This document shows, in pieces, positions 4,364 through 64,000 of a DNA stretch of 64,000 bases. The position numbers were made by a program, and so were the translations under genes. The DNA comes from Takakia lepidozioides (lineage: Eukaryota > Plantae > Bryophyta), in assembly GCA_030704615.1 (NCBI GenBank), contig CM060733.1, positions 36,580,001-36,644,000 on the forward strand, given 5' to 3'. Within the stretch, counting starts at the first letter, position 1, and each line of letters starts with the position of its first letter. A model generated the notes under the pieces. That model had not been told where the DNA came from. It did no database searches and saw only the letters and a list, made by a program, of their open reading frames with translations.

Positions 4364-4364
4364 A

Positions 4365-13402: not shown

Positions 13403-13416
13403 TGACTGGTGTTGAG

Positions 13417-14528: not shown

Positions 14529-14530
14529 CT

Positions 14531-14542
14531 TGGTATCAGAGC
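14531..14542 (+). promoter_or_regulatory. Primer binding site, tRNA-iMet
   Basis: TGGTATCAGAGC 2 nt after the 5' LTR. Confidence 0.95.
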
Positions 14543-14583
14543 TTAGAGTTCAGTACGCGATCGTCCTTGGGATTGGCCTCATC

Positions 14584-22111: not shown

Positions 22112-22993
22112 AAGGATGTTTTCTTGGCAAGATGCAAGTGTCTTGCTTCATTCTTTGATATGTGTAGCTACTCAGACCATCCACCATTTCCTGAGAGTCT
22201 TGACCATCATGTACTGCCAGAGAGGGCTAGAGGATCGGATTCATGAGGGTTTGACAGATTCAACAAAAATCATTGACGGAGGGTGGTTGAACACTGGGGG
22301 TTCTACTGCTCACAGTCCCGAATCATGTGCATGGATTAATAAAGGAGAAGTCCAAAACACTGGATGGGATGCCTTCCCTTCCTCACCCATTCATTATGTT
22401 CCTGTCAACAATGGCTAGGATGTTATCCCTTGCAATTCTATAGTTAATGACGAACACAATCTGTCAGGTGGGTGACTGATTGTTGGTAAGAGTTTTTAAT
22501 GTAACTCTGAATGTATTTAGCATAAAACATTTTGTGGAGTAAAAAAAAATGTGAAAAAATGGATTATATTGGTAAAATATAAAAGTACGTATCCAGTTAA
22601 CCCTTCATTGTTTACCAGGCTCAGATGGATCCCACTGACTTTTGCGTATGGCAATAATTTTCATACTTTCTTCAAGATCATTTATAGCCTCCTCGAGTAG
22701 GCCCTACCTCTCATCCAACAAGGGAAGACTCCGAGCCACTGGGAGAGCTGATACATCTGGCAATGAAATGTTTACCATTTTTCTTGCAAAAAAACAATGA
22801 AATACAAGACGTATGTATGTAACACCATGGGGATGACCCACCTTTTTTTTTTGTGAAAATTGAACATTGAAATGCAGAGACGTGACATGATAGCTCCGAC
22901 AATACTCCGCCATTTTTCTTCCAGAAATAAACAAAACACGGGATCTCTGTATGTTACACCATGGGGATGACCCACCGTGCAGAATTCTCAGAA

Positions 22994-34946: not shown

Positions 34947-36926
34947 TGCATCCGCACCCACCCTCTCTCTCTCCTTCTCTCTCGCGTTCTTTAATCTCTA
35001 TCCTTCTCTCTGGCTGCTCTAAGAATCCCGCGAGCGGCAATACGGACCACACGGCGCTTCTGACGGACGTCCGTCAGCGCCCGGCGCACTCTCGCGACGG
35101 TGGGCGGCAGTCCGTCACAGTTGACTTCGTTACACCAGCCTGCCGTCGCTTAGTTGGACGTTGATTTCTAAGCTAATCCCTTAATAAGTCTCCGGAGACT
35201 GTTTCCTAAGGTCCTTGGAGATTTTTCCTCACAGCAACTCTATCATTAGGCTGGCTTTCTATTAAGTCTCTTAAGGAGGCAAACCAGGGGTCATTTTTCT
35301 GGTACTTTCACTGGGTTCTAACTTCTGTGTTTTGCATTGAGCTTGTATGGTATACAAGTTGTATGAATGGAATAGTGTTTTGGGTGAAAGGCTAGTGATG
35401 AATAGAGAATCTTAGAGTTGCTTGGTCCTATCTGCATGCTATTTTTCCCCAAAATTTGCATGCCCTTGTAAGGAAAGGAGAAACCTGGCCCTAGCACAAG
35501 AGTTGAGCAGCACAGCTTGGCCCACTACAAGGCAAAGTTTCTCTTGTGATGACAATACAGTTATCTGTAAAGTACCACAAACTGGGGGTGAGTACCCCGC
35601 CTGGCCAAAATAGGGGGCGAGTTACAAAATTGGGGATCAAACTAATACAAAGGGAAAAAACTGACGAAACTAGTTTCTTCACCAAAACTGGGGTCAAGCT
35701 AGTTTGGGTTTTGACAAGCTGCAGGGGAGCGACGACGTGCTGGCTGCAGGCTGAGAGAAGAACCTTCCCTACTTCTTATACTTTCAGGGGATCAGATCGG
35801 GTCAAGTAACAGGACTCATACCGAGTTTGGGCAAACTCGCACAAACTCGCACCCAGTTTAACAAACTCGTAATGTGTTTGGCAGACTTTCCGTCCGCACT
35901 CCAACTGGGGATGAAACACCTTACGACTCAAACTTACGATATAACCGCCAACGAGCAGGCAACCATGAGTAATATCTTCCTCTCATTATTCACATATCAC
36001 TTTGTTTGGTGTGATTTTATGGATTTTAACTGAGCCTGAGCTGGTGGAACAAAAGCTTCCCCCATGAGTTTTTGGGTCTAGATTTGAGACATTGGACAGT
36101 TCAACATTCAGAAAAAGAAAACATGGGTTCACTTCTCTTGAAGTGGATATTTAGGAGACCTTTCGGCTTGTTTGACATCGGGAGCTAAAAGGGTTATTGA
36201 GAACATTGGGAGTCATGCCAGAAATCAGCACCTGCTTCTTGGAACAGTAGCAGCACCACTGATCATTGCCTGAAACTATGCACAATTGTTTACTCTACAA
36301 TAGTTTCATACATGCTCCCAAATCTGGTCTCGACCTGTAGGCAAATGTGTTCTTAAGTAGGTGGAGTACTCCAACATGCACAAACCAATAGTCTGGTGTG
36401 AGGGTGTCATGCAAATCCCCTTCATGAACATCAATCAATAATAGAATACCAAATACCATTGCAATCACTATGTGAACTTTCATGTGGCCACCACAGGATT
36501 AGATCTTGGTGGTCAAGGCTAGCTTTCCAAAACATTCCTGCAAGTTAGTCAAGGGCTCTATCTGAAGAAGCACCACAAGAAACATACGAACATGCCCCTC
36601 TAATCAAGCTCATTATGAATCGTGTACACTTTCATCTTCAGCTTTGGAGAAGCTCCACCACCCACATCAGAATAAGGACAGGATGCTGCTTTCCTCCACT
36701 ATCACCAGAGTCAGTCACAACCCCACCTTCAGTCATTGCCTGCTCCGGTCAAGTGCAATTATGGGCTCACTTCCCACCTATGCTCATCCCCACTACCATT
36801 TCCACTGGATATGCCACAGGCAATGGCCTCAACAGTACATCATGGTCAACATTCTCAGGAAATGGTGGATGAACTGAGTAACTCCACAGATCAATGAATG
36901 AAGCAAGACACTTGCACCGTAGTGTT

Positions 36927-39900
36927 TTACCAATAATCCCCACAAGCACAAACCCCATCTTCAAAGTGGTGAAGGCGGTTACCATCCCGTACACAATTGC
37001 TCGGCGAACAATCTTGCAGACGAACTTGGTGGAGGTGTAGCAGTCCACACACACACGAACATTCTTGATGACAGAGGCGTCCTAGGGGCTGTGCTGATCA
37101 GCCCAAAACCAATGGCCAGCTTCTCACTGTGGTGGCAAAGAGCAAACTCCTTTTGCTCCTCCAGCTCATCATACCATACAAAGCGCGTGTCAGGCACATA
37201 CCCTGCCTCCTTCATCTGCCCAGACAACCTTCTCAGCTCAGCATGCATTTCGTTAATTTTGAGATGCAATTTGTCATATAACAAAGGTGTGCACCCCGTT
37301 GTCAACCTCAATGCAGCAGTGACATGGCTCCTTTCTAGCCCCTCTGACCTTCATCATTTTCCTCCGATTTGCACTATTGTCCCACCTGCCAGCTGCAGCA
37401 TAGAGGTTTTATAGCAACAAATAAGTAGCGCCATCCTGCCTAGCATCCCACTTGAGAATAGATGTTGCCGCACGTTCAGCCATCTCCACATTGCCATGGA
37501 TTCTGCAGGCACCAAGCAAGGCCTTCCACACCACAGCATCTGCTTTGATAGGCATTTTCTTAATGAGGTCCTCTGCCTCATCCAATTGCCCCGCACGTCC
37601 AAGAAGGTCCACCATGCAGCCAAAGTGCTTTAGTGTCGGAATGACTCCATGATCTTGACTCAGGGAATCAAAGTAGCGTCTTCCTTCATCCAGTAGGCCA
37701 ACATGGCTGCAGACAGAGAGAACACATAAAAAGGTGACACTGTCTGGCTTCAAGCCTTCCTCTTGCATTCTTTCAAATAGTTGGAGGGCCTCCCTATGAA
37801 ATCCATGCTGGGCATATCCTCCGATCATCTCATTCCAGGACACCATATCTCGTTCGGCCATGTTGTCGAATACTCCCTTTGCATCTTCCATGCTCCCACA
37901 TTTGGCATACATGTCCACCAGGGTATTGTTCAGAACGATATCTGGTACAATTCCAGCTTTGACGATGTCACCATGGACCTCTTTGCCCCTTTCCAGGGCT
38001 GCCAGGTGCGCACATGCCTTGCAAACGCAAACAAACATGATGCGGTCGGGCTTCACCCCTTGCCACATCATTTGCTCATACGTCTCCAAAGCCTCCATCC
38101 CACGCCCCTGCTGTGCATATCCTGCCAACATCGCGTTCCATGATACCACATCTCGTTGAGCCATACTGTCGAACACTCCCTTTGCATCATCCATGCTCCC
38201 ACATTTGGCATACATGTCCACCATGGAAGTGTTCAGAACGACATCTGGTACAATTCCAGCTTTGACGATGTCACCGTGGACCTCTTTGCCCTTTTCCAGG
38301 GCTGCCAGGCTTGCACATGCATTGCAAACGCAAATGAACGTAATGTGGTTGGGCTTCACCCCTTCACGCATCATTTGCTCATATGTCTCCAAAGCCTCCA
38401 TCCCAAGCGCCTGCTGTCCATATCCTGCGATCATCGCGTTCCAGGACCCCACATCTCGTTCAGCCATATGGTTGAACACTCCCTTTGCATCCTCGATGCA
38501 CCAACATTTGGCGTACATGTCCACAAGAGTATTGTTCAGAATGACATCTGGTACAATTCCAGCTTTGACGATGTCACCATGGACCTCTTTGCCCTTTTCC
38601 AGGGCTGCCAGGCTCGCGCACGCATTGCAAGCGCCAACAAACGTGATGTGGTCAGGCTTCACCCCGTCCTGCATCATTTGCCCATACATCTCCAAAGCCT
38701 CCATCCCACGCCCTTGCTGTGCATATCCTGCGATCATCGTGTTCCACGACACCACATCTTGTTCAGCCATATTGTGGAACACTCCCTTCGCATCCGCGAT
38801 GCACCCACATTTGGCATACATGTCCATGAGGGTATTGTTCAGATTGACATCTGGTACAATCCCAGCATTGACGATGTCACCATGGACCTCTTTGCCCTTG
38901 TCCAGGGCTGCCAGGCTCGCACATGCATTGCAAACGCAAACGTACGTGATGTGATCAGGCTTCATCCCTTCCAGCATCATTTGCTCATAGGTCTCCAGAG
39001 CCTCCATCCCACGCCCCTGCTGTGCATATCCTGCAATCATCGCATTCCAGGACACCACATCTCGTTCAGCCATATGGTCGAACACTCCCTTTGCATCTTC
39101 AATGCTCCCGCATTTGGCATACATGTCCACCAGGGCAGTATTTAGAACGACATCCGGTACAATCCCAGCTTTGACGATGTCACCATGGACCTCTTTGCCC
39201 TTTTCCAGGGCTGCCAGGCTCGCACATGCATTGCAAACGCAAACAAATGTGATGCGGTTTGGCTTCACCCCTTTCCCCATCATTTGCTCATATGTCTCCA
39301 AAGCATTCCTACCACGACCATGCTTGGTAAATCCTGCCATCATTATATTCCACGTGATCAAACATCGTTCAGGCATTCTGCTGAACACTTGGTGAGCATC
39401 CACGATGCTCCCGCACTTAACATACATGTTGACAAGGGTGTTGTGTAGAAAAATGTTAGGCTTGAATCCACTTTGGATAATGTGAGCGTGCACCTGCTTT
39501 CCAGTTTGCAGGCCTTTCATCTTGATGCACTTATGCAAGAGACAGACATAAGTATCTGAATCTGCTGAAATGCCTCCTTGGTTTAAAGTCTGTAGAGCCT
39601 CTCTCAGTCGCCCTGCCTCACATAGCATCCTCACATGCCCAGAGGTGCCAGAAGAGGCATTGTGGACTCTCTCCCTTAGTCCTCTTTCAGAAGCTGTGGT
39701 CATGGTCGAGGTGCCTGATTTCATCAACTGTGCTGCCGCTGCTGCTGCTTCCAGTTGACCATCTACCCATGCAGGTTTCTTGTAGCTATCGATCCACAGG
39801 GAATCATAGGTAATCTTGTGCTTGAAATCCGGTCCTCTTGGATGAATCTGGACCCACACTCTATCCCTGCTCCTTCAGCTACCCCTGCCTCTGCACAAAT

Positions 39901-45459: not shown

Positions 45460-46455
45460 TTAAAGGTATGTAACTAGAACTTATATCAACCATATTCCAT
45501 AAGTCAAACAAGCTAGTTTCTTTTTTGTTTTCGGAGGGACAAAGCCTGAAAGTGCATTGACAAGTGTGGAAAAAATAATCAGAATGGCTAAGGCCGAGAT
45601 ACGGCTGGGAAAACTATCCGAACCAGTGTTTTTAAATCTGGCGAAAAATCACCAAATTTTGACCTGGAAAATGGTCGGCTACTTTTACTAAGGAATTATG
45701 GGAATAAAAGGGCCAATGGTCAGATATCATGAGCCAGATTTGTCCTATGCGGACATGTTAAAATATGACATCTGTCGTGCGCATACATATCGCTACACAA
45801 ATACATCGCTGTCCAAAACCACACAACACATGTGCACACCACACACTAGTATACCACTAGTCCAGCCACTAGTCCAACCACTAGGCTACAACTAGTCAGT
45901 CACTAGGCTGCCACTATGCTGCCCACTATAGCAGTCACTAGTCCACACAATGATAACGAAGAAGAATACAAGCACGAGCTCATACGAGCTCACAAAGCTG
46001 AAGCATAAACTCATGCATATATAATCTCATCACTCAAATACAAGTCAAGCCAAGTGCACCTCACGCCATGGGGAATCCACACTACGGCGCCATAGCTAGG
46101 CGCGGTGAGGCTCAACTCGAGAAAGATGAGCCTCCCGCACTTGCCGTGAAGATAACCACTCCAGGGCCTAAATCTACCTTGACCCTTGGATTGACACTTG
46201 GGCCAATCCCAAATGTCAATATGTAAAAGCTAGCTATTTCCTAGCTAGTTTCACACTAGTGGTAAAATAACTTGACAGCTGTCGTGCGCATACATATCGC
46301 TACACAAATACATCGCTGTCCAAAACCACACAACACATATGCACACCACACACTAGTATACCACTAATCCAGCCACTAGTCCAACCACTATGCTACAACT
46401 AGTCAGTCACTAGGCTGCCACTATGCTGCCCACAAGGCAGTCACTAGTCCACACA

Positions 46456-46468
46456 ATCGCCCCCCTAG
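46456..46468 (-). promoter_or_regulatory. Polypurine tract of copy 2
   Basis: CTAGGGGGGCGAT directly abutting TGTGTGG, the start of the inner A repeat on the minus strand. Confidence 0.7.
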
Positions 46469-46715: not shown

Positions 46716-46860
46716 CTATCCCAAGCAGTGTGGACACAACCAATCTCCGTCAGGAACCTTCTCAAGAGGTGGTGTCAAGCATCCCATATGCCAACCCCTT
46801 GAGCATCGATCACACACCAGCATGGTGGCTGCCCCTTTGGCAGACCCACAGAGCATGCAC
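46716..46860 (-). other. PHD finger at the C-terminus of the integrase
   Basis: CMLC..MLVCDRCSRGWHMGCLTPPLEKVPDGDWLCPHC, a C4HC3 pattern with the conserved W. Confidence 0.95.
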
Positions 46861-49719
46861 CTCAAACCTGCAGGTACCACTACCAAGTTTGGGTCAACTC
46901 TGCCATCGACATTGGGAAGGTGACATGGCGCACAATTACGCACATGGTCCTTCCAAGTCATGCCATCCCGACCCTCCAAGATCAGGACCCTTGAGGGCAA
47001 CACCTCTCGAACCCTCAGAATAACATGCCCTGCAGTAACATCCAGAGTCGTAGGAGCAGTCTGCTGCAAATAAACATAGTCACCAGGGCTAAACCTCCGA
47101 ACCCCAGGACGATATCCTCCACCACGTATAGTGGCATACCTCAACGTATCACGGTGTTGTGCAATGGCAAGGTTCTCAAAAGCCATGGGCATGACTTTCT
47201 TGAACAACTCTGCACGCTGATCACATGCACGTACCCACACGTCCGGATTGTCAAGGTTAAGAACTTGAGCAGTGTCCCTACAAATGGCTGCAGGCAAATC
47301 CGGCTCTCGGCCAAAGAGAAGGAAATATGGTGAGAAGGAGGCAAGTGATGCTTATTTGCTGAACCTGTAGCCCATGGCTAACCAAGGAACCTGAAGATCC
47401 CAATCTCTTAGGTGTCCCTTCTGCAAGCCATACTTGCGCAAACCCCTCTTCACCGTCTGAACAATTCTCTCTGAAAAGCCATCAGCCTCAGGATGATCCC
47501 GAGAAGTGGTGCGGTGGTCTATCAAGGCTTTATCACACAAAGCCTGAAACTCCCCAAGAACTCTCTCCCTTGGTCCGTGAGTACCTCAGCTGGAGCACCA
47601 AATCGGCTAAGCACACGATCCAAGAATGCATACGCAGCCCCTCACTAGCCTTGTCAGGCAATGGAACCAACTCAATCCACTTGGAGAAATGCTCCACCAT
47701 CACCAACACATATCTGTGGTGGCGCATAGTCAGTGGCAACGGTCCTACGAAGTCAAGACTCCACCTGTAGCCCAATCCCATGATTGGTAAAGGATGCAAC
47801 TGTGGTGTAGGGGTGTTGAATGAAGCACGCACCCTGTCACACACCATGCACCTAGCCACGAACTGTTGCACCTCTGTATGCATACCACACCACAAATACT
47901 GCCCTTGCAGTAAACTGTGAGTGCGTCGCACTCCAAAATGCCCCAAATCCCCATGGGTATGCCGCACTAACCGTGCACGCTGTGTGGGGTGAGGCACAAT
48001 CATCACCCGACCATCCTCCCACACTCGAAGTAGGTGTATCCCCTCCCACTTGAACCTCTTGGCTCGTTGCAGGATCCCATCCCTCTCCCTGGCAGTCATA
48101 GTGGCTGTCGTGTCTCCCGTGCGGAGGTAGTCCAACACAGCCGAATCCTCATGTATATCTCTGGCAGCACCTGGCTCATCACTAGCCTTAGGGTCCTCAG
48201 ACACGCCGTCTACAGTCATCCCTGTTGTAGGTCCAACCTGACCTCCCGATGCCAAGATACACAAAAATGCAGATGCGTGTCATCCCGGCACCATCTCCTC
48301 GTCCGTCTCACCATGCCACCGAGCTCCAGTGTCATCCTGTTGGCTCATGCATGGATTGCGACTCAATCCATCCGCATCCCGATTGACCAAACCCGATCGA
48401 TGCACAACCTGAAAGTCATACTCCTGGAGTATGAGTGCCCACCGTGCAAGCTTCCCCGTAAGCCTGTCTGACTCCATCAACCACTTGAGTGGCTGGTGAT
48501 CCGTAACAAGGGTGAAAAGATTGTCGTATAGATAGCACCTGAAGTGTGCCATGGCCCACACTGCAACTAAGCACTCTCCCTCATATGAGCTGTACTTAGC
48601 CTCTGCAGCGTTGTTCGAGCGGCTAACATAAGCCACTACGAACTCTCTTCCCTCATCATCCACCTGTGTGAGCACGCTCCAAGCCCCAGCATGCTCCAAT
48701 CCGTATGCAGCTGAAAGGGACGCCCCCTGATAGGTCGTCTCAGGATAGGCGCCGAGGTCAACCTCGCCTTGAGCTCTTGAAAAGTTTGTTCCTGCTCATC
48801 TTCCCACTGCCACTCCTGGTCCACCTTGGTCAGCTTGGTTAGAGCCTTTGCAATGGTACTAAATCCCTTGACAAACCGTCTATAATAGTTTGTCAACCCC
48901 ATGAAAGCTCGAACTCGGCTCACATCCGTGGGGCGTGGAATTTGTGCAATGGCCTCTACCTTAGTCTGCTGTACCCCCAATCCTCCAGGATATATCATGT
49001 GACCCAGATACTCAATCTGGTTGTGGAAAAACTTGCACTTCCCCGGATGCAACTTCAATCCGTGCGCTCTCAAGCGCTCCAATACCACCTGAAGGTGTCT
49101 CTCATGCTCCTCCATCGTAACACTAAAGATGATGATGTCATCTATGTAGCACCGAGCAAAGTCCACCCCTGCTAGAATCCTATCCATGACTCTCTGAAAC
49201 TTTGCAGGAGCATTCTTAAGCCCAAATGGTAAGAACCGCCACTGATATAGCAATCCTTGCCGTGCTCATTGATCCCCCAGAATGTCGTCTTCTGCTTGTC
49301 CGCCTCCTTGATTGGCAACTGGTGATATCCGGATCGTAAATCCAAAGTGCTAAAGACCTTAGCATGCCCGATGGCATCAAAGATCTCCTCTGGTGTTGGC
49401 ATGGCATACTTATCGGACTTGTCTGACGATTTACAGGCCGGTAATCACCGCACATACGTCTCTCCATCCAATTGCCATAGACATCCTTCTTGGCTGGCAT
49501 CACTGTGGCTGAAGCATACTCTCCACCAGAGAGCTCCACCAAACCTGCCTCCCAGAGATCTTGAGTCCTCATCTGAATCAAAGACCTCTCCATGTCACTG
49601 TATCTATAGGGTCTCCGAAAGATTGGCGTGTCAGTGGCCAACTCAATACGGATCTCTTGATCCTTCAGTGCTCCCAAGTCCTTCAAACTGAAGGCAAAGC
49701 AATTCCTGTAAGCCCTCAA
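46861..49719 (-). pseudogene. RT - RNase H - DDE integrase of copy 2 (frameshifted)
   Basis: RMCGDYR, LDLRSGYHQ, LPFGLKNAP, YIDD; LHTDWS, YEGECL, TDHQPL, DADGLSR; GHFG..CMVC, WSLDFVGPLP, ADGFSER. Confidence 0.93.
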
Positions 49720-50159
49720 GAACCGCCGTATACGTCGTCTCTCTCCTCCGGTGACAATGGGTCCAATGTCAGGCTCCCAATTGTCCTCCGTAACTGCAAC
49801 CTTAAGTCCAGTGGGCTTAGAGGTAGAGGACGTGTCCAGTGGTTGCTATGTTGCAACCTCTTGAACAGTACTCCCTACCTGCTCAGTCAGTAACAAGGCC
49901 TCATCCTGCCCCATCATCTCATCCTCAAGGACTTCCTCCACCCGAGAAAAATCCCCAACCTCATTTTTCATCGTCACCTTGGCTGCCAACTCCCTCTGAA
50001 CCTCGAGCACCTCCCACGTGTGCCATGGATGCCTACACCCCGTGGTCCTCACATGCTCGCCCCCACTCACTGCCTGTACCGTCTCGGTAGGCAGAGAGAC
50101 CATCGAGGGAATTGTACTCCGCACTCCGCGTTGCTCAGCCATAGCCAAGCTGATAATCT

Positions 50160-51075
50160 AGGTCACGCAATTGAGATCCATTGCTTGCCCCAACACTTGA
50201 CGACGTGATGCCTCAGAAGAGACGACACCGCCGTGGTACTAGTGGTAAAACCCATTGCCCGCTCACGCTCGTCAGTATTAGGCTCCACTAACTGCTGCAA
50301 CTGAGCATCCCACAGGAGGCCAGGTCCACTATCTCAGAAAGCATGCGATCCTGGGAAGCTGAGCAGTGTAGGTAATGCTGCTCGTGGTTGACCCACCTTG
50401 TTGACCACTGCCAAAGGCGAACGGTCATCATGTCTCACACGCTGAGACTGCCTCTCTGTGTCCAGAATGCTATCCACTGTGAGATGTGTTGGCCGCAGCA
50501 CCCCATCAAATGCACGCAAGAGCAGTGCGGGTGGCATCAAGTTAGTCCACCATAGCCGTGGACGATGAGCCCGTGACCCCACTGTAGCTGCATCTAGCAA
50601 CACTGCTGACCCAAGCCACGACCGACTTGATGCACACTGGCCATCACCCTGGCCCGAGAATCGCCCATCAGTGGCACATTCTCCAAGATGTATGTTGGAG
50701 ATACAGCTTGATGAAGCTGCAAGTGGCGCAAAAACCCGCACCATCTCCCAAAAACAGACCCGACCTCGAGTCTCGCAATCCATTGTCATGCCCGACTGAT
50801 GAATGCCCTTGGCAGGCCAACCTGCCACTACCAGATCAATGGAGCCAACCCGCCTCCAAATCCTGGCAAGGCCTGCTGATATCCACGAATTGCAGACACC
50901 GACAACAACTCAAGGTACCGCTGCACCAACTGAGCAACATGGCGAAGTGAAACGCGTCGTGCAGTCTCATCTCTCTCCATATACAGGTACCGCTGAACTC
51001 GTACACCTGCCTGTAACACAGCAGCCAATCCGTGTCTAATCCCGCCAAACAAGTCCAGAAGACAAATGCCTTCAT
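50160..51075 (-). pseudogene. DNMT3-like C5-cytosine DNA methyltransferase domain embedded in pol
   Basis: Motif I LLDLFGGI, II YMERD, IV IDLVVAGWP/CQG (50819-50809, -1 shift), VI YILENV (50683-50675), VIII LLDAATVGSRAHRPRLWWTNL, IX-X ERERAMGF..RRQVLGQAM, all in canonical order. Confidence 0.9.
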
Positions 51076-51349
51076 CCGGATAGTGCCACACAATAGGTGT
51101 GGTGTCCAATGGAGACAACTGAGGTGGTCCTGGTGCAATCCCCGCACTCTCTCCTCCTCTCCTGACGGTACAAAAGCCTCCACCCAGGCTTGTTGCACCC
51201 GTCGATCAGCATCCCGCTGCAAATCCTTGCTCGTGCCCCACAATGGAGTCTGAGCAACCATGGTAGGCAACTCCGCCATACCATACATGTCATCTTGCTC
51301 TCCCGGAGGTGGCACATCCTCTGAATGAGTGTTGCCCTCAAGCAACTCT

Positions 51350-51840
51350 CTAGGCCAACTCACTGCTGAGGTGAATGCTGCTAGTGTCGGCATCTTGCCT
51401 CACTGGGCAAACCGCAACTCCTTCTATGAACGTCACAGGGAGCTGCACACGCCGGCCCTCCCTGACTGCCATGCGACCTATAGGAAGCTGATTCCTCCCA
51501 AAGTCCAGGGTGAAGCCCATGGGTACAACACTGCCCCACCAACTAGGACATCGTATGAGACCGCAATCTTCTGTCACAATGGCCTTGGCTCGCATCACTG
51601 AGCCATCTGTAGGGTGATCCGGCCGTAGTTTGATAGCCAACTCACGCCGTGTCATGCCCTAGCCTGCTCCGATCCTCCCAGAGACGTCTGTATCTGGAAA
51701 GGACAAGGCTCCATATCCGCCTCCGTGAGGCCCAAGCCTGCAATAGCAGCTCTGCCTAGCATCAATGGCTGAGCTCCCGAGTCCAACAAGACCCGCAGTG
51801 GTCGGTACCTCGTGGCCACCCTCTCTGCCTTCCGGTCCAC
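51350..51840 (-). pseudogene. Aspartic protease of copy 2
   Basis: RVLLDSGAQP catalytic motif, located between gag and the MTase. Confidence 0.8.
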
Positions 51841-51899
51841 TCAAACAGAAAATGCATCCTGGTTGTCTAACATGACAACTCCAGGTGTCACAACCATGG

Positions 51900-53895
51900 G
51901 CGCCTCAATGGCTACCTATCCGGCAGCTTCCTCATCCCTGCAGCTGCAAGCTTGCCATGGCAAAACCGCCGTGGCAGTCTTGACCCTCAAATCCCGAGGA
52001 TCTCTCCGTCACTACAACAAAACTACAAACCTCCCTCCCCAATGACATAGGTAACCTCCGCTCGGTTTAATAGTTAAAAATTTAAAAGTCGGGGGAGGGG
52101 AGAAAGAACAGTGTGCGGAGGAAAAACTAGAGGTGCCATGGAATGGCGTCGACACTGTCTCCGCCAATGTGAATGAGTGAGGAAGCCTAGCCTGACGGCT
52201 TGCCTCCCCACGTTGTGGATCCAACTCCACCTCTGCACCTCGTGGCTCAGGAAACTCGTGCTGGTCCCTCGAGTCACGGGGCTGCAGCAGACTCCACCTG
52301 CACTAGTGGTAGTGCTGCTCCACACATGAATCCCATGCCTCCCATATCTCCTCCCTCAGGAGGAGCAGGAGGTGGACCATCCGGCCTTAGAGCCGGTACC
52401 ACCTGAGCTGTAGCCATGGCAACGAGCCTCTGCTCTAGCTGCTGAAGCCGGTTGGCCATGCCTTGGTCAACACCCTGACCTCCGCGTCCTTGGCCATGTT
52501 GAGCTTGCCCTTGGGCCTGCACCTCAAGGCTGGCCACCTCGTCCTCTCTGGGTTGATCCACCTCGCCCCCGGCCACCATTGGTTCCCTTGGAACTGCCTG
52601 GGTGCAACTCAGGGATGCAAACATAAACACTGGGCCTCTCCATTGCCAGTGCTTGCCACAACATGCCCACACTGCAACTGTGCAGGCTATGCATGTGCCG
52701 ACCCTTTGCCTCCCTCTGGGAATCCTTCTTGACATGGGGTCCTCCACATGTCCAGCACACCACATCCGCCCGTTGTTGGCCAGCAAATGAAGGGAGAGAC
52801 CCCTGCATCTGAGGTCCTCTCTGCCCTTCCCTGAGCTTCACTGAGCCCCCTTGTTGCCTTGAGCACTGTTGAGGTAGTGGTTGGCTAGGAGCACCACTAC
52901 CCCGTGGTGTCTCCTTAGCAAATCCCACCATGACCACTTCGTTCCTCCACCATGTTGAGCTCTATTCGCTCTGCCAGCAAAAACACATTGCTAAGGTGGG
53001 TTGGGCCGCTTGTGAGTGGAGAGTTGCATCCCGCACCCTTCTCCTCAGCTCCTTGTCCAATATCCCATACCAGAATTAGACTGCTTGAGCTTCCGTAACC
53101 CCTTGGGTTACATTTATCAAGCGCCTCATGCGAGTGAAAGCCTCCCTCAAGCTCTCGGTCGGCTTCTGTTGGAAACTCTTGCAAGCTCCGCAACTTCTCT
53201 GTCCTCACCCCTGGTAGTTCCCTATCAACTCTTCGAAGAACTCCACAACAGGGTTGAAGGCAGGCACGGGTACTAGTGCTAGTGCGGTAGTGGCTTGGGT
53301 GGACGTTGTAGCTACTGTACCACCAGTCCCACTAGTCCCACTGCTACTTGCTGAAGTTGCCGGTGCAGCGGCAGGTGTAGCCACTGCCCTCGCGGGCTCT
53401 AGTGCCCCCTAATGATAGAGACATAGTCGGGTGACCAGTACATCCTCCACTCCTCGATCTCAACCTCATGCCCCCGCCTGAACTCATGGTAATCATCCAT
53501 AGGCGGCCCCTCAAGGTGCTGAAACAGCCCCTTCCATGCCATGAAAGGCGTAAATAGTTGTGGATTGCGCATTTGCTGCAAATCACACCAACTATCAAAC
53601 TCTTGGATAAAATCATTCAACTCGATGGTGCCCACCGCCCCAGAGTACCTTCGTGGCCCCTTGGTAGCTCCATACATCTCCTCCATTGTGTCCCACAACA
53701 ATGGCAAAGGAAAACAACTTGCACCGCCGGTATGAGTCCTCCTGATTCACAATCCGAATCAGAACCTTCCGTAGAAGACACAGGAGGTGAAGGTGGCCTA
53801 AACCGCACACCTTGTCTCGTGTACCCACTAGTATTGCTAGTGCTCAAACCGACACTGTCCCCAACAACTAGTGGCACCTTCGTGTTGACACTCAA
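51900..53895 (-). pseudogene. gag of copy 2 (frameshifted)
   Basis: Collinear with 4754-6925, with ELNDFIQEFDSWCDLQ and CWTCGGPHVKKD. Confidence 0.8.
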
Positions 53896-54589
53896 CCGGT
53901 CATGAACATTTCCCTAACCCCCTCTCCACAAGGTAACCGGGGGTACAGAACCTGTTGCGGCTTATGGTTTGGAATACTAAGTTCCTAACATAGCCTACAC
54001 CTGTACATGCATCCACCGCAAGCACTCCTATGGTTGGCTGGTCATCACCTCCAACCTCACCACAGGAGAAACAATGATGGTTTGCCTGGTCATCACCCCA
54101 GCCTCACCATCGACAGCATGCTCTAGGACTGGCTGGTGATCAAATCCGGACCAATCACCTATAAAAACAAGCGCCCACACAAAACTAGCATGGCGCACAG
54201 TCAAGCATGCAGGTATGGAGGGGATCCAAAAACACAAGAAATCAGAACGACAAATCCCCACAACCAAAAAACAAACTCCACGGTGTTGCTCCTGCAAGGA
54301 CACCCCAGCCCAAACCCGGACTGACTCTTGCCTCCACCAACGGAAAGGTCTTGGGCTAATGAGATGGTGAAACTACGAGGAGGAGAAGCTAAAGCAATGC
54401 CTAACCCCAGCATGCCCTCATCCCAACACTCTTCATCTCCTCTCTTCCCTTACTTGCATGACCATGGGAATATCATGAAGATACTCCTCAAACCGCCATC
54501 CACGAGCTTCAAAATTTGGCCTTCAAGACCACATGTCAGTCCTTAGGCAGTCCACCAGTGCCTCCACGAGTCAGCATAGGCCGTCCACA

Positions 54590-54868: not shown

Positions 54869-55817
54869 TGTTGTCGCGCGGCTTTTACTCACCCATCCCT
54901 TCGCTATTCGAGGCGGAAACTCCAAGATTGAAGAGTTGGAAATCTCTAAGTACTCAGCCCGCGCAGAACAATCAGTCTTGACCTACAGCTAGTGTATCAT
55001 GGGGGTGTTTCCTATTTGTTTCCCTTATGGTATTCATGTTAACTATCTTACCATTGATAATTAAGTATCAGTTTGCTTTATCAATCTATCTATTGGATTC
55101 CATCAACTCATCCATTCATTCCACAGCTTCTCTCAGATCTCTCTACACAGTGTGATTGTATCGTAAAAGTATCCGATTATGATTTATCAGGTATCAGGCC
55201 GAAGCCATTGTGTCTCTAATCTCCTCTACAATATCATTACAGCCTTGCATATATCAAGCATCTATTCATCATCTCTCTATCTTCACTTCCGTTCTTCATC
55301 TCTGCCCGATCCCCTCTCCTCTATCACCAAGAAGTCCTCCTCCGAATCCTCTCCCTCAATTCCCCGTTTCTCCCTTTATCTTCCTATCCGCAGTTCTAAC
55401 CGTTTCCCTCACTAACCGTCGTCTATGAACTAACATGTTCCCTTCGCAGGTGTTGTTGTTCCCACAGTCGTTCCCTGTCCTACTCTTCGTTCCCTATGAT
55501 CGTGACAGCTGTGACGTCATGTGTCTGTGTCAGTGTGGGTGTGTGAAACTGTGACTGTAACTGGGGCTGTGACTGTGCTGTGCGGCGTGTGTGTGTGGCT
55601 GTGTCGGGCTGTGTCGGCTGTGTCGGCTGTGTCGGCTGTGATGCTGTGACGACTGTGACGGGCTGTGTTGGCTGTGTTGGCTGTGACGACTGTGTAACCC
55701 CCCTCTACAGTGCGCTGCTGTCACCCCTAAGGCTCCTGTTGGTCTCAGTCTGTGCAAAAATTAAGGGTACCCTACAGATCCCGTATAAGTGTCTAAGTCC
55801 CCGACAGTCCTCTAACA
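54869..55817 (-). repeat. 3' LTR of Athila-like element
   Basis: TGTT/AACA inverted termini, adjacent PPT, and internal GGCTGTGTC repeats at ~55505-55700. The partner LTR is not in the window. Confidence 0.75.
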
Positions 55818-55868
55818 TTACCCCTTCCCCCCTCAAAAAGCCGTGTCCTCACGGTTTACTGATTTCGA

Positions 55869-58800
55869 CTAGCCAAACCTTTGTGAGTGAGCACCTTCTT
55901 GACGTTGAGAGTTTCTTGGCGGACTGTGTGTACGAGCCCGAGGTCTGTGTCTGGTTGACGGAGATGGTTGATCACTACCTGGATAAGTGAGGCCCTCTGG
56001 AGGCTGATATCGAGGTAATCTTTCCGGCATAGGAGATCCCCTTCGCTTCTTCTCTTCCATCTGAATTGCATAGTCTTCTCCCATGTCAAAAGAATTCGGT
56101 GAAGAAACAGTTGTATCAGAATCCTCATCGCCTCTCAGGTGTTTTAATTTTCGAACTTTTTGTGGAATCATCTGGGGCATACAATGTTGTCCACCATGTC
56201 TGGAAGTTTGTATTTTACAACTTGGTGTAACCGCTGAACAGCAAAATTGGTGTAGACACTGAGCTCCTTGTCTGTCCAGGTGAGTGGGGTACCAATTACT
56301 GGTGCAGCGTGCAAGTACTTCCATGCGACATGTCCCTTATAGAAAATGTCATCAATGCCGAATGAATTTCTGTGTTGACAAATGGTTGCAGGCCGCTTGA
56401 AACCATGAACGAATTTGAGAATCCTTTTGCATCATAACTTTTGGGTCATATAGGTACATATGAGGTGGCACCGAAGGTAATACCCAATGATCTCCACTGG
56501 AATAACTTTGAAAGCGTGTTTGCATCTTTTGTTGCTCAATGTGATATCGTACCAGAAAACAAGCAGCGTAGTATAACCCGCACCCCATGACAATACTTGC
56601 TATCCCTTGGTCTTGGTATAAATGAGTCCATGTACAACCTGGAAAGCAATCAATTCCCTCAACATGGTCCCTGCCTCGTGCCAGTATTGTGCAAAGTGAT
56701 GATCTTCAAATGTCGATTGTTCGGAAGTTCTTAAGAACTTTGGTGCCTAGTTGCCTGGTAGCCATATACGCATGATTTGGTAGTAATGTGCGAATGACTG
56801 CGGATGACTAAATTCTTTCCAAGCCAAATCCAACATGATGGGAATTTGGTTGAAGGGCATAATCATAGCCCTACTGTACTCCCTGGCAGCTGGAGTTTTA
56901 GGTGGGTTAAAAGCGGCATTGCCCCATACCTCCTGCTGTGGTGGCTGTGGTGTGGTTGTAGTAACCACAGGTTCAGCTACTGGTACAGTGACTTGTTGTG
57001 GTGGTGGTGGTACTGGCTCTTGTATCATTGGCATCTCCTGCACCTCCTGTGAAGACTGAAAAGCCAAAGTTCTGGCTTGTAAATAAGAAGCCATTAGCTG
57101 TTCCTGAGGGATATAGACTCTTTGGTCGATGTTTGAAGTGAGGTCTTCCACTTGAGTCTGCAGTCCGTCTACATCCTCTTGTAACTCTGCTATCCTACTA
57201 TAGACATTGTCTATAGTAGTTGTGGCAATGTTCTGCACCTGCAGCCTGAGCTCATTCATCTCGCTCTAGGTGAGCTTCCGTGGTGCTTTGCCCTCTACTG
57301 GTCCTTGTGCTAACCAGACCTGCATAAGGCTGTTATCCACCAAGTTGCTTGTGTTTCCCCTGAGAGTTTGCTCTTCTCTTAGCTTGTACAATTCCAACTG
57401 CTGTTGTAAAGCCTCCATGCGCTTCGCCTGAGGTTCAACCAATTTCGCATAAGCAGCAAGTAGATTATTGGCTTCCTTCCAAGCCTTGTTATTGACCGCG
57501 ATTTCATTTCTATTGGCCATGATGGTTTTGTTGCAACTCCACGATGTGCTTCTCTTGATCAGCTTCAATCTGCCTGTATTGCTTGAAAGTATCTTCATTA
57601 CGACAGATTGTATTCTTCATATCGACAATGAGCTTCATTTGCTCAACATTCTCTTCTTCTGCCTTCGTACATTTTTCCGCTTGACTGTTTATTTCTTTTG
57701 TTGATTGGTCAAGCATAGTTGTAAATGTAGCACATTGTATCGCCATCTGTTATGCACTGTCTGCAACTCCGTATGTAGTGCATTCAGTTCTTGCAACTTG
57801 CTTTCATGCTGCACCTGCATTTGATATAGCTGTTGCTTATGTGCTTCATGCAATTGGTCTTGCGCGAGGCCTGCCTCAATCAATTGTTGCTTGGCCAATT
57901 GCAAAGCCATTTCTGTATTTCCAAGTCCTGCTTCATCTTGAGAGTGACCTCTTCATCGACCTTGTTTGCACACTCAGTGGCAAGTCGAGCTTTGTAATTA
58001 GCACATTGTTCGCCAGCCTTTTATGCACTGTCTGCAACTCCGTATGTTGCATTTTGTAATTAGCACATTGTTCGCCAGCCTTTTATGCACTGTCTGCAAC
58101 TCCGTATGTTGCATTCAGTTCTGCAACTTGCTTTCATGCTGCAAGCTGGCATTTGATATAGCTGTTGCTTATGTGCTTCAGCAATTGGTCTTCGCGAGGC
58201 CTGCCTCATCAATTGTTGCTTGCCAATTGCAAAGCCATTTCTGTATTTCCCAGTCCTGCTTCATCTTGAGAGTGACCTCTTCATCGACCTTGTTTGCACA
58301 CTCAGTGGCAAGTCGAGCCTCAAACTCCTTCCTGAGTTCCTCTTTCAAGGCTGTCAATTGGGGTAATTGGAACATGGATTTGACATAAGTCCCCAACAAA
58401 TTAAGTGTCCTGCCTATGGAACTCATCAGCATTGCCTGTTGGGCATCATGGTGAGGTTGCTGCTGTTCCTCCTGATCTTCAACAGTGTGATGCTCACTAA
58501 CCATTCAGGCCATTGTCCCACCGGATTTTTCTTCCTGAACTACTTCATCTATCACCGGTGCTACAGTGTATGACCTTCCGCCTGTGGTACCTCCGACACA
58601 GGTGTGTGTATTATATGCACCTCAGGATTTCCCTTGGGCAACTGTTGCACCTCTGGGATTTTCTGTCTCCTTGACCAGACCAAATATTCATAGAGAAGGT
58701 CCCCCTTCTCTATTTCCTGCCACTATCTGTTCTGTAGTTGAATATCTAACCCTTCACTTTCCAATCAATTATTCTGGTTGAGCTGCATGGATAACTTGTG

Positions 58801-59964
58801 ACCTTGTGACAAGTCGTTCAAGTGGCTGTGATGGTTGTGATGCAGAAGTAAACTTCCTCCTCCCTCTCTGAAGGTCCTGCTTCCAGTAATAGCATTTCTC
58901 TGTGCTGCTGTGCCCCTTCCTGGCCATGAGCTTGGGAAACATTATCATGCGGAATCCGTGAAGCCAGTGGATCCGCCACTACAGTCTTTCCCGTCTCTGC
59001 TCTTAGTCTCGGGTTGCCTGCTATCCACCCTCACTGTGTGAAGAGCCTTGCTCTTCCATTGCAGTTGTTTCTGGCTCAAACACTCCATTTCCTTTCTTTC
59101 TTTGCGCATTAAGTATGCCAGAATCAAGGATTATTTGAGCAATGATTGGGCCAGACACTATTATAGGAGACTTTGCGGTAGTACCTTGTAATCTTTTCAT
59201 CTCCTCTACCAGTGCGTTGTACATTATGTCCGCCCATTGTACCTCTCGTCCCTTCAGGCCTTTGAGTATTTCCTCCGTGAAGGATCTGCTCAAATACTGT
59301 TGGTTCTGTTTCATGGCATCAGAACGTTCAATACCTGGCCTACCTCTTTAACCCTGGTACACAGCCTTGGTACAGCATAACCCTGAGTTTTAAGGAAACT
59401 CCCTTCTTGGAATAAGTCCTCTATTTGCAGTCTTGCCCTGTGTTGCTCCACATGCACCTGACCTGCTGGCAATCGAAACAATTGCTGGAGGTATAGGGGA
59501 GTAATCATTAATTCAACTCCCTTCACCGTTGTTGTTCCTGTCCTTGGCTCAAAGTTCTGCAAAAATTGTAACATGTACTGTCTATGGTGTAGTGTCCAAT
59601 CTAGGCTTTGCAATCCTTGCAATCTCAGCTCCTCCAGTATCTGTATCGCCTGTGGGGTAGCAATCGTTTGTTTCTGCAGAATTGTGGTGCTCTTCACCCT
59701 GATTTCCTCCATTCCTCTCACTCTCTTCATTTTAGACTCACAGAACTGTTTTGGCTGTAACAACTGCAGGAATGCCTGTAGTGCACAAAGCATAAACGTA
59801 TGGTTGTCGCAGAAAGCTATGGGTAATTTCTTGTAAGCCTGCGGGGCTTGCAAGCATCGCTCAAGAGAAAAGCTCCGCTCTGTCCTTTCGTGTCTATGCC
59901 ACTGCGTAAGTAATATTGCGAGCGTATAGTCTGTTAGTTCCTCCATAGTTTCCAGGTATAGCAT
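55869..59964 (-). pseudogene. Extra ORF region between integrase and PPT (ATHILA-ORF1/Transposase_32-like domain, coiled coil, Cys/His-rich tail)
   Basis: QFLQNF..TVKGVELMITP..QLFRLPAG and GREVQWADIMYNAL..GPIIAQI. Q/E/L-rich heptad ORFs at 58504-56747. All on the pol strand. Confidence 0.6.
57721..58318. repeat. Tandem duplication of ~265 bp plus a ~62-bp partial copy
   Basis: 57721-57990 recurs at ~58055-58318 with many 1-nt indels. A partial copy lies at 57991-58053. Confidence 0.85.
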
Positions 59965-60419
59965 TGATGGTCTGTCCTGTCGAGACGCCCGTTACTCAGA
60001 ACGACGCCGCCTCTTGCGCTCATTTCCCTCCATTTTCTTGATCCTTTCTCTGGTTTTCTATTGGCTGTATCCGCTGTGACTGGATTTTTAGATTTATCTT
60101 CTTTAGTGGACTTTCCCTGTTGGATAGTCCACTAGGATCACACATGTGACAAGAATTCGGCTTTTCTGTACTTGCCGTTCGTTCCGTTTCCCTTTTTCCG
60201 TACTCATTAATGGGCCCGCCTTTCATCCCTTTTGACGGCCGTTCTTGTCCTCTTTCTTTTTGACACCTGTTCTTGCACTTCCTTCTCGGCTGTGTGTCGC
60301 GCCCTGACCTCCACGTGTCTATTTTTAAAGTAATTTCCGTTTCTTCTTCCTTCAGCCATTTTCCTGAAGTTATTATGTGTCCACTTGTCACTGATTCTAT
60401 GGATCGTGTAACTTTAGTA

Positions 60420-60660
60420 GGCTGTGTTGAGCTGTGACAGGCTGTGTCATACTGTGTTACGCTGTGATAGGCTGTGATGCACTGTGGTAAGCTGTGATAG
60501 GCTGTGACACGCTGTGGTAGGTTGTGATAGGCTGTGTTGCGCCGTGCTGGGCTGTGATAGCTGTGTTGCCGTCCTTGCTGGGCTTGTGATAGGCTGTGTC
60601 ACGTCGTGATGGCTTGTTAGGCTGTGTGCGCCTTGCTGGCCTGTGATAGGCTGTGTCACT
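60420..60660. repeat. ~30-bp GCTGTGATAGGCTGTG tandem repeats downstream of pol
   Basis: Repeated GCTGTGATAGGCTGTG units. Confidence 0.75.
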
Positions 60661-60785
60661 TCTGTTTTGCCCACCCTGGTCATATATGCTGGGCCTAGCG
60701 ACAAGTGTTCATACTCCGTTCGTAACACTGGTGCAGCCCGTGACTGCTCTTGCGGTTCAACATGCAAATCATGCTGCAGGGGTTT

Positions 60786-63700
60786 GTCATGGATACCACT
60801 GTACCCCTTCAACTTATTTGCATTGACTCTTCCCAGCATTTCTTTGTTAATGGTTTGTAACATGGCGGTGTTGTTATCATACATCTTTTGTATGACATAA
60901 GGTCCTTTCCACGGTGATTTAAGCTTAGAAGCTTGAATCTTTCCTTTCTTCTGCAACCATAGAACCAAATCCCCCGTCTTAAAAGTCTTAACTTGCCTTC
61001 ATCAAACTGTTCCTTTCGCTTCATCTGAATTCTGGTCATATTATCAGCTGCATCAGCACGTACTTCTTCCACATGGTATAATTCATGTTTCCTGACCTTG
61101 ATGGAGTCTTGCAATTCCATTCTTTTTCCCCACTCCGTTCTCATGGTAGGTAACAGGAATTCCACTGGAAGTAAGGCTTCCATACCATAAACTAATTGGA
61201 ATGGTGTATACTTAGTGTGACTTTATATGAAGTCCTGTATGACCACAAAGCTGTCAGCAGCTTTGTATCCCAATCCGTTCTGTTTGCATTGACTATCTTA
61301 GCCAAGATAGTACATAGTATTTTGTTGGTAGCCTCTGCCTGCCCATTACCCTGTGGTAATATGTTGTACTCTTTCTATGCACAATCATAAACTCTTTAGT
61401 CAACAACTCAATGGTCTCATTCATGAAGTGACTTCCTTGATCACTGATAAATTCTAAGGGACAGCCAAATCGTGTAAGTATGTTCTCGTACAGGAACCTT
61501 GCTGTGGACTTGGCTGTGTTGTCCCTCAAAGCTTTAGCTTCCACCCACTTTGTAGTATAATCAGTGGCTGTAATTATGTACCTGTTTCGTGTATTCTTGG
61601 ATGGTGGGTTAATTGGTCCAACAAAGTCTAGTCCCCATTTCTGAAATGGTTCCGTAGGCATTGTAGGATGCAAGGCCATCCTTCCAGATCTCTGCAAAGG
61701 TCCTAGCCTCTGACATTCATCACACTTCTGACAATACTCGTGTACATCTTTGAACAAAGTAGGCCACCAGTATCCTGCGAGTAGTATCTTTCTACTGGTA
61801 GTCTCTTCTCCAAAATGACCTCCAGCCACTCCTTTATGAACTTCCGCCAAAACTTTATTTACTTCATGGTGGTACAAGCATCGTTTTAGTACTCCATCAG
61901 GTCCTAACTTATACATTCTGCTTCCTACCATAGTATAAGGTAAAGCTTTGATAGCGATTCTCTTCCTCTGCTCCTTACCATAACTAGGTGGGCACTGACC
62001 ATGAGCAAGGTAGTATCTGATTGGCCACTGCCAATCTAACCATTCATCTGCACTTCCTTGCACCTCCATTACAAATAAACTCGCATCAGGTAACTGATCG
62101 TCCACTCCTGTGGCGGCCTCTCCTGTTGTTAGTCGTGACAAATGATCTGCCACAAGATGCAAACGGCCAGGCTTGTAAATAACCTCGAACTCAAACTCAT
62201 GCAAGATTATTAACCACCTCGCTATCCTTCCACTTATCAAGGTTTGTTCACCAGATATATCAGAGCCTGGTGATCCACATAAACATAAACTTTCTTCCCA
62301 TAGGTAATGCCTGAATTTCTTCACTGCATAAATCATTGCCAATGCTTCTCTTTCCGTTGTACTATAGTTCCTCTCAGCACTGTTCATCAACCGGCTAGCA
62401 TAGTACACAGGTGAATCTATATTCCCTGTAACATTCTGGGCTAACACCGCTTCCAACGCTTCTCCTGATGCATCGCAGTGAACATGGAATACTACATGCC
62501 AGTGAGGGTTAATCAGTACAGGTGTAGTTGTTACTGACAGTGTAAGTTCCTCAAATGCCTGTTGACATTCCGCTGTCCGGCAAACACTGCATCTTTCTTC
62601 AGTAAGTTTGCTCAATGGTGCTGCTATTTGTGCATACCTTTTGACAAATCTCCTGTAATAACTGGTTTGCCCAAGGAATCTTCGTAGACTTTTAACATTC
62701 ACTGGTGGTGGAGAGGCTTTAATGGACTCTGTCTTTCTGGGATCCACAAGGAGTCCTTTTTACACACAATGTGTCCCAGAAGCACCCCTGAGTTCACACA
62801 GAAAGTACACTTCTCTGGATTCAGGCCCAGACCTCTCATCCTGCATCTGGCCAGCATAACTCCAATTTATGCAAGTGCTCATTCTTAGAGCTGTACACAC
62901 TGAAATCATCCAAGAACACCTGCATGAAATCATCCAGATACTCATGAAAAGATTCACTTATCACTCTCTGAAAGGTCGCTGGTGCATTACAAAGTCCAAA
63001 GGGCATGACTTTGTATGCATAAGCCCCCCAGTCTGTGATGAAAGCTGTTTTCCCTTGGTCTTCTTCTGCCACTTGCACTTGATTATAACCACTGAAGCCA
63101 TCCATGAATGAGTACATCTCATGGCCTGCCACAGTGTCTAATACTGCTTCTGTGAATGGCAAAGGGAAAGGATCTTTCTTCGTACAAGCATTCAGCTTCT
63201 TATAGTTCACACATACTCTTAGTTTGCCATTCTTCTTGGGAACTATAACAATGGGTGACAACCAAGTTGTATACTCTATTGGGTATATAAACTTAGCCTC
63301 AGCCAACTTCTTATCTCTTCTCCAACCTTCTGTGCGTAGTTGGGATTCATTCTATACCTCGCCTGCTTGATTGGTACTGACCCTGGTTCCAGTTCAATCT
63401 TATGCTGACAGACTTCAGGTGGTATCCCTTTTAGATCCTCATAGCTCCAAGCAAATACATCTCTGTATTTGATGAACAAGCTTTTAGCTTCTTCGAAGAA
63501 TTCCGGCTCCAAATCAGCTCCTACTTTCACCATCCTCGGTTCCTCTTTAGTTCCCACATTTACTTCTCTCACCTGCTCATCAGCTGTGATTGTCCAACCA
63601 GTCACCACTTCATCCTGTAAGCTCACAGTGGCTGGTTCTTCTAGGATTTCTATTTCTCCTTCTCTCTCTTCATAGAAATGTGATGGGTAAATGCTGGTTT

Positions 63701-64000
63701 CCTCTTCAGTTGGTGTTGCTGTCACTACACCACAGCAGATACCTCTCAAACAACTTAGGCTTTCCAGCCGCATCTCTGCAACCTGCTCCCACTCTGGGTG
63801 TGCAGCAAATAGGGTAGCTTCCTGCTCCTCATCCAGTCCTCCTCTCCAGTCATACTCTCTGACTCCTCGAGGTCTTCTTGTAGCAGGTAATCTACTAGAT
63901 TTCTTTGTGGTAATTTGTATCTCGTGTATCCCATTATGCACGGTTAGTAACTGAGAATTCCAGTCATGGAATACCCTGGCCTGTTTCAGCCACGGACGTC
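60786..64000 (-). pseudogene. pol (PR end, RT, RH, INT) of Athila-like element
   Basis: GRPWLKQA, DGFSGYNQ, MPFGLCNAPATFQR, FLDD, HCDAS, YSTTEREAL, GHFG..CDEC, WGLDFVGPI, SDQGSHF, WKGPY. Confidence 0.93.

Follow-up and report, generated by a model that had tools for sequence, protein, structure and literature searches.

A Ty3/gypsy retrotransposon family of Takakia lepidozioides and its relatives with a DNMT3-like methyltransferase ahead of a putative readthrough stop codon

The stretch analysed here, 64,000 nucleotides of the moss Takakia lepidozioides (assembly GCA_030704615.1, contig CM060733.1, positions 36,580,001 to 36,644,000; hereafter the window), contains on its minus strand, at 53746-46719, a decayed Ty3/gypsy retrotransposon copy that runs from gag through protease (PR), a methyltransferase (MTase), reverse transcriptase (RT), RNase H (RH) and integrase (IN) to a PHD finger. 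This copy is dead, and the MTase is carried by the family and is not a one-off capture. From the sequences we propose, with a probability of about 0.55, that Gag, PR and the DNMT3-like MTase form one frame ending at a UAG codon, that readthrough of this codon would yield RT-RH-IN-PHD, and that the enzyme would be packaged at Gag-like amounts and would likely methylate the element's own complementary DNA (cDNA). The parts of this copy, and of an internally deleted sister copy in the same window, are as follows; relatives are cited by locus (L) or protein (P) number.

52277-53746, minus: gag, broken; tblastn aligns Marchantia P0013 residues 1-320 at 53686-52701 with 44-77% identity
51400-51830, minus: aspartic protease, broken (LLDSG, D at 51783); matches the protease region of P0013/P0025
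50134-51085, minus: DNMT3-like C5-cytosine methyltransferase with the usual order of motifs I-X, broken by 6 frameshifts and 2 stops; from frameshift-aware alignment and profile
50805-50840, minus: motif IV (AGWP/CQG), divided by a 1-nt shift in this copy; from motif reading and alignment
49840-49848, minus: conserved TAG, in frame and with CAA CCA after it, matching the type I readthrough motif UAG CAR YYA
48690-49800, minus: reverse transcriptase, YIDD at 49148-49137, 2 frameshifts in the aligned part; RVT_1, E 4.6e-25
48283-48795, minus: RNase H; RT_RNaseH, E 8e-28
47100-48020, minus: integrase, broken (HHCC zinc finger, core); Integrase_H2C2, E 2.9e-13, and rve, E 0.0011
46719-46865, minus: PHD finger at the integrase C-terminus; PF00628, E 2.4e-11
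46457-46466, minus: polypurine tract directly before repeat A1; the same tract in L007, L015 and L019
46280-46456, minus: repeat A1; 94.5% to A2 over 199 bp
46274-46283, no strand: A-B junction palindrome GACAGCTGTC, whose halves are the element ends in copies with target duplications
45951-46277, minus: repeat B2; matches the 5' repeat of the sister copy (9246-9498) at 88.5%
45773-45950, minus: repeat A2, probable 3' end (GACA); from comparison with A1
3999-9498, minus: sister copy, internally deleted, both ends present (B1...A1-B2-A2); 87.8% over 2,295 bp to 52301-54565

The order PR-RT-RH-IN with a DDE integrase is that of Ty3/gypsy elements, as are TG..CA termini, a short target duplication (AATG in the sister copy, AAGG in L019, TACA in L013) and the polypurine tract. 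Two complete long terminal repeats (LTRs) flanking the internal region are not found, as the repeats are split and the 5' end of the window copy is interrupted near 54870. A Pfam scan gave no match for the gag pieces of this copy and placed its protease (Asp_protease_2, E 0.0046) under the cut-off.

When the Marchantia domain of P0013 is aligned with frameshifts allowed, the MTase occupies 51085-50134 on the minus strand at 68% identity, with frameshifts near 50853, 50815, 50757, 50732, 50625 and 50218 and stops at 50336-50334 (TGA) and 50160-50158 (TAG). A sequence-only reading of this stretch had reported the C5-MTase motifs in order on the pol strand, and all those it quoted are located there: LLDLFGGI at 51061-51038, IDLVVAGWP at 50840-50814 with CQG one frame over, YILENV at 50692-50675, DAATVGSRAHRPRLWWTNL at 50594-50538, ERERAMGF at 50270-50247 and RRQVLGQAM at 50205-50179 (all minus strand). 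Because a frameshift falls inside the catalytic PC motif, motif IV (GWPCQG) is readable only across the shift. The same reading counted a few 1-nt shifts and one TGA; the TGA and the shifts are real but the shifts number six, and the TAG, lying at the boundary it had drawn, is a second stop. A profile free of the window sequence scores 227 and 76 bits on this interval, while none of 50 shuffles exceeds 2.6 bits; a profile search of the window found no second MTase domain of the same type. A search with PF00145, which had been suggested as a check, gave a divided answer: raw single-frame pieces of the window MTase have no match in the Pfam scan, while the MTases of intact relatives match above cut-off.

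By sequence, fold and tree the element MTase sides with DNMT3, as had been supposed. In a phmmer search of PDB the Marchantia domain finds DNMT3A best (E 2e-11), ahead of 4onj (8.7e-5), M.HaeIII (1.8e-4) and DRM2 (0.017). A predicted model of the same domain (pLDDT 94) matches DNMT3A in Foldseek with a TM score of 0.74 (E 8e-20), and the matches listed for it are all DNMT3. A quick tree of 48 rows, which holds no plant DNMT3, DRM, DNMT1/CMT or Klebsormidium sequence, places 18 element domains and two fish DNMT3 together (SH-like approximate likelihood ratio test, SH-aLRT, 100) and apart from 28 prokaryote/phage-type enzymes. Motifs I-X stand in the normal order. We rejected a DRM identity because the motifs are not circularly permuted, whereas those of DRM are. 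Host DNMT3 (animal DNMT3A/B, bryophyte DNMT3) shares the fold and the motif order, and the nearest non-element matches are fish DNMT3; it differs in that identity is only about 21-26%, and the element domain has a longer region after motif VIII and no PWWP or ADD.

The in-frame TAG CAA CCA at 49848-49840 (minus) lies 68-70 codons ahead of the first RT motifs and has the context UAG CAR YYA, a type I stop-codon readthrough signal (10.1101/2024.02.08.579442; PMC2754532). It is the only stop-CARYYA on the element's minus strand, where CARYYA would follow a stop by chance with a probability of about 0.0013, and no variant or indel is listed at the site in four sequencing runs from three studies. 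At the matching place TAG/TAA-CAR-YY is present in 22 of the 30 PR-MTase-type loci with downstream sequence (one is decayed, seven have none), and exact CAR YYA occurs in the window copy, L015, L016, L023 and L033. L015 has 2,337 open codons with a single stop, TAG CAG TTA; Pfam places protease and MTase upstream of it, with RT, RNase H, integrase and PHD downstream. Most unspliced PR-MTase proteins finish 60-185 residues past the MTase domain. Seven folds of the sequence after the stop, judged by eye, gave no evident conserved RNA structure. Since an in-frame stop is conserved between MTase and RT, the enzyme stands with Gag, ahead of the recoding site, and the earlier picture of an MTase inside pol, within one PR-MTase-RT frame, has to be given up. 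Judged from the codon context and its conservation, readthrough of the UAG would very probably yield RT-RH-IN-PHD. Compared with other type I readthrough sites the stop context is the same, with the difference that the recoding site here follows protease and MTase.

Several observations weigh against this proposal. Exact CAR YYA is kept in only four of the 22 loci besides the window; the other 18, all members of a single close group, have C or T as the sixth base, and five of these carry TAA. The MTase is joined to RT without a stop in P0082, P0107, P0231, Closterium P0222, L032 and L051, seven of the 30 loci are without the stop site, and most chlorophyte forms have the enzyme inside Pol. Because some members have no stop, Gag-level expression is not required lineage-wide.

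In the proposed mechanism Gag-PR-MTase would be the likely main translation product, and readthrough would add the domains from RT to PHD. The methyltransferase would enter the particle along with Gag and in similar amounts, and the protease would free it there. The enzyme might then, with even odds in our view, methylate the cDNA before or during integration, the new copy resembling host heterochromatin or escaping recognition as foreign DNA. It is an equally balanced matter whether the PHD finger would read H3 tails unmethylated at K4 and steer insertion; its closest PDB structures are CHD4, KDM5A/B, PHF12, ATXR5, PHF21A and BAZ2, which we take to be the class of readers of unmethylated H3K4. 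Two sets of data count against methylation of its own DNA by the element. The Gypsy domain of Klebsormidium gave no methylation in yeast, a result that its authors call inconclusive (PMC5890265). Depletion of CpG/CHG does not tell own from host methylation and does not single out the element, whose CpG observed/expected (o/e) ratio is 0.51; two other retroelements have 0.85 and 0.33, and a PPR gene of the window has 0.52. Likewise the 23 sites at which the window copy differs from most others (5 CG, 7 CHG, 11 CHH) do not discriminate between the two.

Alternatively, an active enzyme, once set free from plentiful Gag-PR-MTase, might act on chromosomal DNA, that is on the insertion site, on older copies or on host chromatin, and limit the element or shape heterochromatin. 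Gag-level output is above the need of one cDNA, the PHD finger suggests contact with chromatin, and both ideas are listed in the Discussion of PMC5890265. We nevertheless regard chromosomal action as unlikely: the MTase lies in the first open reading frame (ORF1) with no attached targeting domain, the PHD finger sits on the readthrough product, and a polyprotein domain would be expected to travel naturally with the cDNA.

It is distinctly unlikely, in our estimation, that the domain has been kept for a role other than on DNA, such as RNA binding or methylation, or as a structural part of the particle. The negative yeast result would fit such a role, as would motif IV, in which EC replaces PC in 108 of 225 rows and prevails in the layout RT-RH-MTase-IN-PHD, and motif VI, which often reads ENT or ENA, mostly in chlorophyte-type forms. 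However, Cys, Glu-Asn and RxR are almost invariant across relatives (of the aligned rows, 224 of 225 have the catalytic Cys and 239 of 246 have RxR), PC is present in 39 of 45 PR-MTase rows, and both sequence and fold are nearest DNMT3 and far from DNMT2.

The MTase is under purifying selection between lineages. For the window copy against 16 loci of its nearest group the nonsynonymous divergence (dN) is 0.22-0.27 with synonymous sites saturated (RT dN 0.15-0.25), and for L015 against L016 dN is 0.045 and the synonymous divergence (dS) 0.278, a ratio of 0.16. Close decayed copies speak less clearly for constraint, with a dN/dS of 0.50 for the MTase (median of 110 pairs) and 0.42 for RT; such a value is to be expected after the death of copies.

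Were the stop a true terminator, RT-RH-IN-PHD would have to be expressed by splicing or re-initiation, presumably as in Ogre-type elements. The Marchantia gene models P0025 and P0040 do splice across the region, and the 18 loci of the close group have lost the final A of the motif and carry an ATG in frame behind CAA CCC. We consider a terminator quite improbable all the same, given that in 13 of 15 non-divergent loci judged the reading frame runs on past the stop, with no obvious shifts or insertions, that CAR-YY is kept across lineages despite saturated synonymous sites and that CARYYA would rarely follow a stop by chance; the MTase would in any case remain on the Gag ORF.

A single capture of part of a host DNMT3, or a set of chance motifs, might be read into the heavily broken window copy and its pieces without a PF00145 match. 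This is refuted by family coverage in contigs and by hundreds of relatives in the same setting, and the shuffle control and the RT and MTase trees, whose main splits match, also speak against it. From sequencing run X1 of the same species, 25,677 contigs align on 49200-52000, with the MTase and RT bins covered alike (summed contig depth is used for coverage and variants only, not for copy number). No RNA run is among those listed as containing the sequence, a result that is silent on expression. Among the differences listed, indels near 50216, 50623, 50730, 50750 and 50814 occur in 29-42 contigs each, and other letters stand at 50334 in 92 contigs and at 50336 in 86. Because other contigs differ there, five of the six shifts in the window copy and its TGA are not common to many copies. 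The sequence-only reading had made its case depend on family presence, catalytic motifs and selection, and on each count it is borne out: other copies and relatives carry the domain, Cys, ENx and RxR are kept in the relatives, and purifying selection is present between lineages.

Protein searches named relatives in the land plants Marchantia, Calypogeia, Riccia and Sphagnum and in the algae Closterium, Chlamydomonas eustigma, Haematococcus, Scenedesmus and Monoraphidium; the closest of those named come from liverworts and Sphagnum. The family profile gives 568 clusters at E<1e-30, of which the best 150 were inspected. Two layouts dominate 253 proteins, namely PR-MTase(-RT) and RT-RH-MTase-IN-PHD, the MTase lying between RNase H and integrase in chlorophyte-type elements (loci L028-L058; P0043, P0104, P0167). 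Members with the second layout keep together both in the MTase tree (32 rows, SH-aLRT 98) and in the RT tree (21 rows, SH-aLRT 97), and in both trees the window copy groups with Marchantia and the L002 group. The RTs of 32 MTase-bearing elements form one group (SH-aLRT 91, with just two MTase-free outgroups); that of L051 falls outside it, beside the outgroups and on a long branch. The main splits agree between the RT and MTase trees, the latter being a quick tree and every tree being supported by SH-aLRT only. The simplest reading of these trees would be one old lineage in which the MTase domain has been relocated. In IMG/VR all matches were weak and of the generic C5-methyltransferase kind (best E 3e-12), with no sign of a viral donor there, and an ESM Atlas search returned generic PF00145 clusters.

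The ends of the element bear on how it may integrate. In the window copy the PHD finger is followed by the purine tract, A1 (46456-46280), GC, B2 (46277-45951) and A2 (45950-45773). At the 5' end of the sister copy (9498-3999) stands only B, its termini are TGTCA/TGACA with a 4-bp duplication, and B1 and B2 are 98.4% alike; it keeps gag, has lost PR to PHD by deletion, and is probably non-autonomous. The arrangement B-internal-A-B-A is seen in the sister copy and in L019, and in a decayed form in L027 and L031. L013 is B-internal-A with TACA on both sides, and L010, L011 and L017 likewise end after A. Among 60 loci scanned, nine have the exact GACAGCTGTC junction 3' of PHD, seven of them with the chlorophyte layout, and L015 has a one-base variant of it.

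Reverse transcription, on a reading that we favour slightly, would give A-B-internal-A-B, this product would be circularised, and integrase would open the internal GACA-GC-TGTC palindrome to leave B-internal-A-B-A. The integrated form would be a circular permutation of such a product at the palindrome. Foamy-virus integrase cuts the palindromic junction of a 2-LTR circle, and the staggered cut gives CA ends (PMC1180852); in the present element the palindrome differs in being pre-formed inside the LTR and not made by end joining. Three points tell against the scheme. The B-internal-A copies are also explicable by recombination between A1 and A2, and we saw no copy of the form B-A-B-internal-A, the mirror product of cutting the other LTR in the circle. 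In the window, about 17 bp after A2 (45755-45772) resemble the junction and the start of B (GACA GA TGTC), and are either a repeat stub or the mark of an insertion into a junction-like target.

In L019 the sequence after B1 and a stretch within B are exact complements over 17 nt (the pair 1842-1858 and 2016-2032; 0 of 200 shuffles), about 25 nt past a TATA-like box. Elsewhere the complement is weaker, 10 nt in L007 (0 of 200 shuffles) and a non-significant 8 nt in the sister copy (28 of 200), and L027 gave 48 of 200. This complementarity suggests that the element may be self-priming, for which Tf1 is a precedent. An insert of about 640 bp with TG..CA ends (54870-55515) interrupts the 5' region of the window copy; its edge GACAGCTGTG lies in cacagc-rich repeats with no purine tract before it, and it is probably part of a second gypsy element at 55500-64000 (minus).

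The closest known system is KnitGypsy-Dnmt3 of Klebsormidium nitens (PMC5890265), which shares the Ty3/gypsy domains and whose polyprotein likewise includes a DNMT3-related domain that is intronless, non-permuted and under purifying selection (here between lineages); both also have DIRS-like split repeats, arranged as A1-ORFs-B-A2-B in Klebsormidium. It differs in that one ORF is said to hold the DNMT together with RT and RNase H, as is the case in Closterium P0222, P0082 and P0231, whereas the window copy has the conserved UAG between them; the present host is a land plant, and a PHD finger, present here, has no mention in the main text of PMC5890265. The window element is probably of the same lineage, a kinship drawn from architecture and not from a tree, with no Klebsormidium sequence among the search matches. 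SymbioDIRS-Dnmt3 (PMC5890265) and the EpiLTRs (bioRxiv 10.64898/2026.05.21.726589) are likewise retroelements with C5 methyltransferases, and SymbioDIRS-Dnmt3 domains methylate CG in yeast (PMC5890265). DIRS elements have a tyrosine recombinase, unlike the window element with its DDE integrase, PHD finger and 4-bp target duplications, and EpiLTRs differ in carrying DAM, a chromodomain and a DNMT sister to DNMT4. A DIRS/PAT-like identity (tyrosine recombinase, no integrase) was rejected on finding an rve-type integrase and target duplications instead. Gypsy-7a_cRei of Chlamydomonas reinhardtii (bioRxiv 10.1101/2022.06.16.496473) has a gypsy polyprotein that includes a PHD finger, for which an effect on insertion has been proposed, but a methyltransferase and split repeats are not described in the passages cited.

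Later papers cite streptophytes and dinoflagellates only (PMC12344493, PMC11244446, bioRxiv 10.64898/2026.05.21.726589), and the phrase 'streptophytes (Gypsy-DNMT3)' in the last of these may reach beyond Klebsormidium. The literature covered, with subscription papers and supplements (that of PMC5890265 included) outside its scope, describes no land-plant or chlorophyte member and neither the stop nor the palindrome of these elements, in keeping with the sequence-only reading, which knew of no land-plant description. Tentatively, and from sequence comparison, one might picture an old lineage from chlorophytes to liverworts and mosses with a writer-reader kit of DNMT3-like enzyme and PHD finger, whose land-plant branch would have moved the recoding site behind the MTase and so given each Gag its own enzyme, would deliver pre-methylated cDNA, and would integrate from circular cDNA cut at a palindrome already present in the LTR rather than by trimming linear ends.

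Elsewhere in the window, a nearly intact chromodomain gypsy element at 13792-20754 (plus; LTRs 96.5% alike, Chromo E 1.8e-12) is inserted in a PPR-DYW gene and is the retroelement with the CpG o/e of 0.85. Intronless PPR and DYW gene copies lie at 36770-39874 (minus), 13414-13797, 20755-22415 and 23913-24720, some of them broken by insertions, and suggest an expanded RNA-editing family. The second gypsy element has an extra broken ORF with coiled-coil stretches 3' of its integrase (55900-60000, minus). A two-exon-like host gene at 33608-34997 (minus) has no Pfam match and, we assume, resembles a plastid outer-envelope pore protein.

Among host defences against retrotransposons DNA methylation is the chief one, and an element that brings such an enzyme along is a puzzle. 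The described cases come from algae without good genetics; the relatives annotated in Marchantia polymorpha bring the puzzle to a land plant that is easy to work with and for which methylation mutants exist. The position of the stop, behind the enzyme, would reveal selection on how much of it is made, and the split ends suggest circle-based integration of an LTR element. Among bryophyte gene models labelled 'DNA methyltransferase' many belong to these elements, and counts of methyltransferases are affected; LTR finders would miss the copies that have no paired LTRs.
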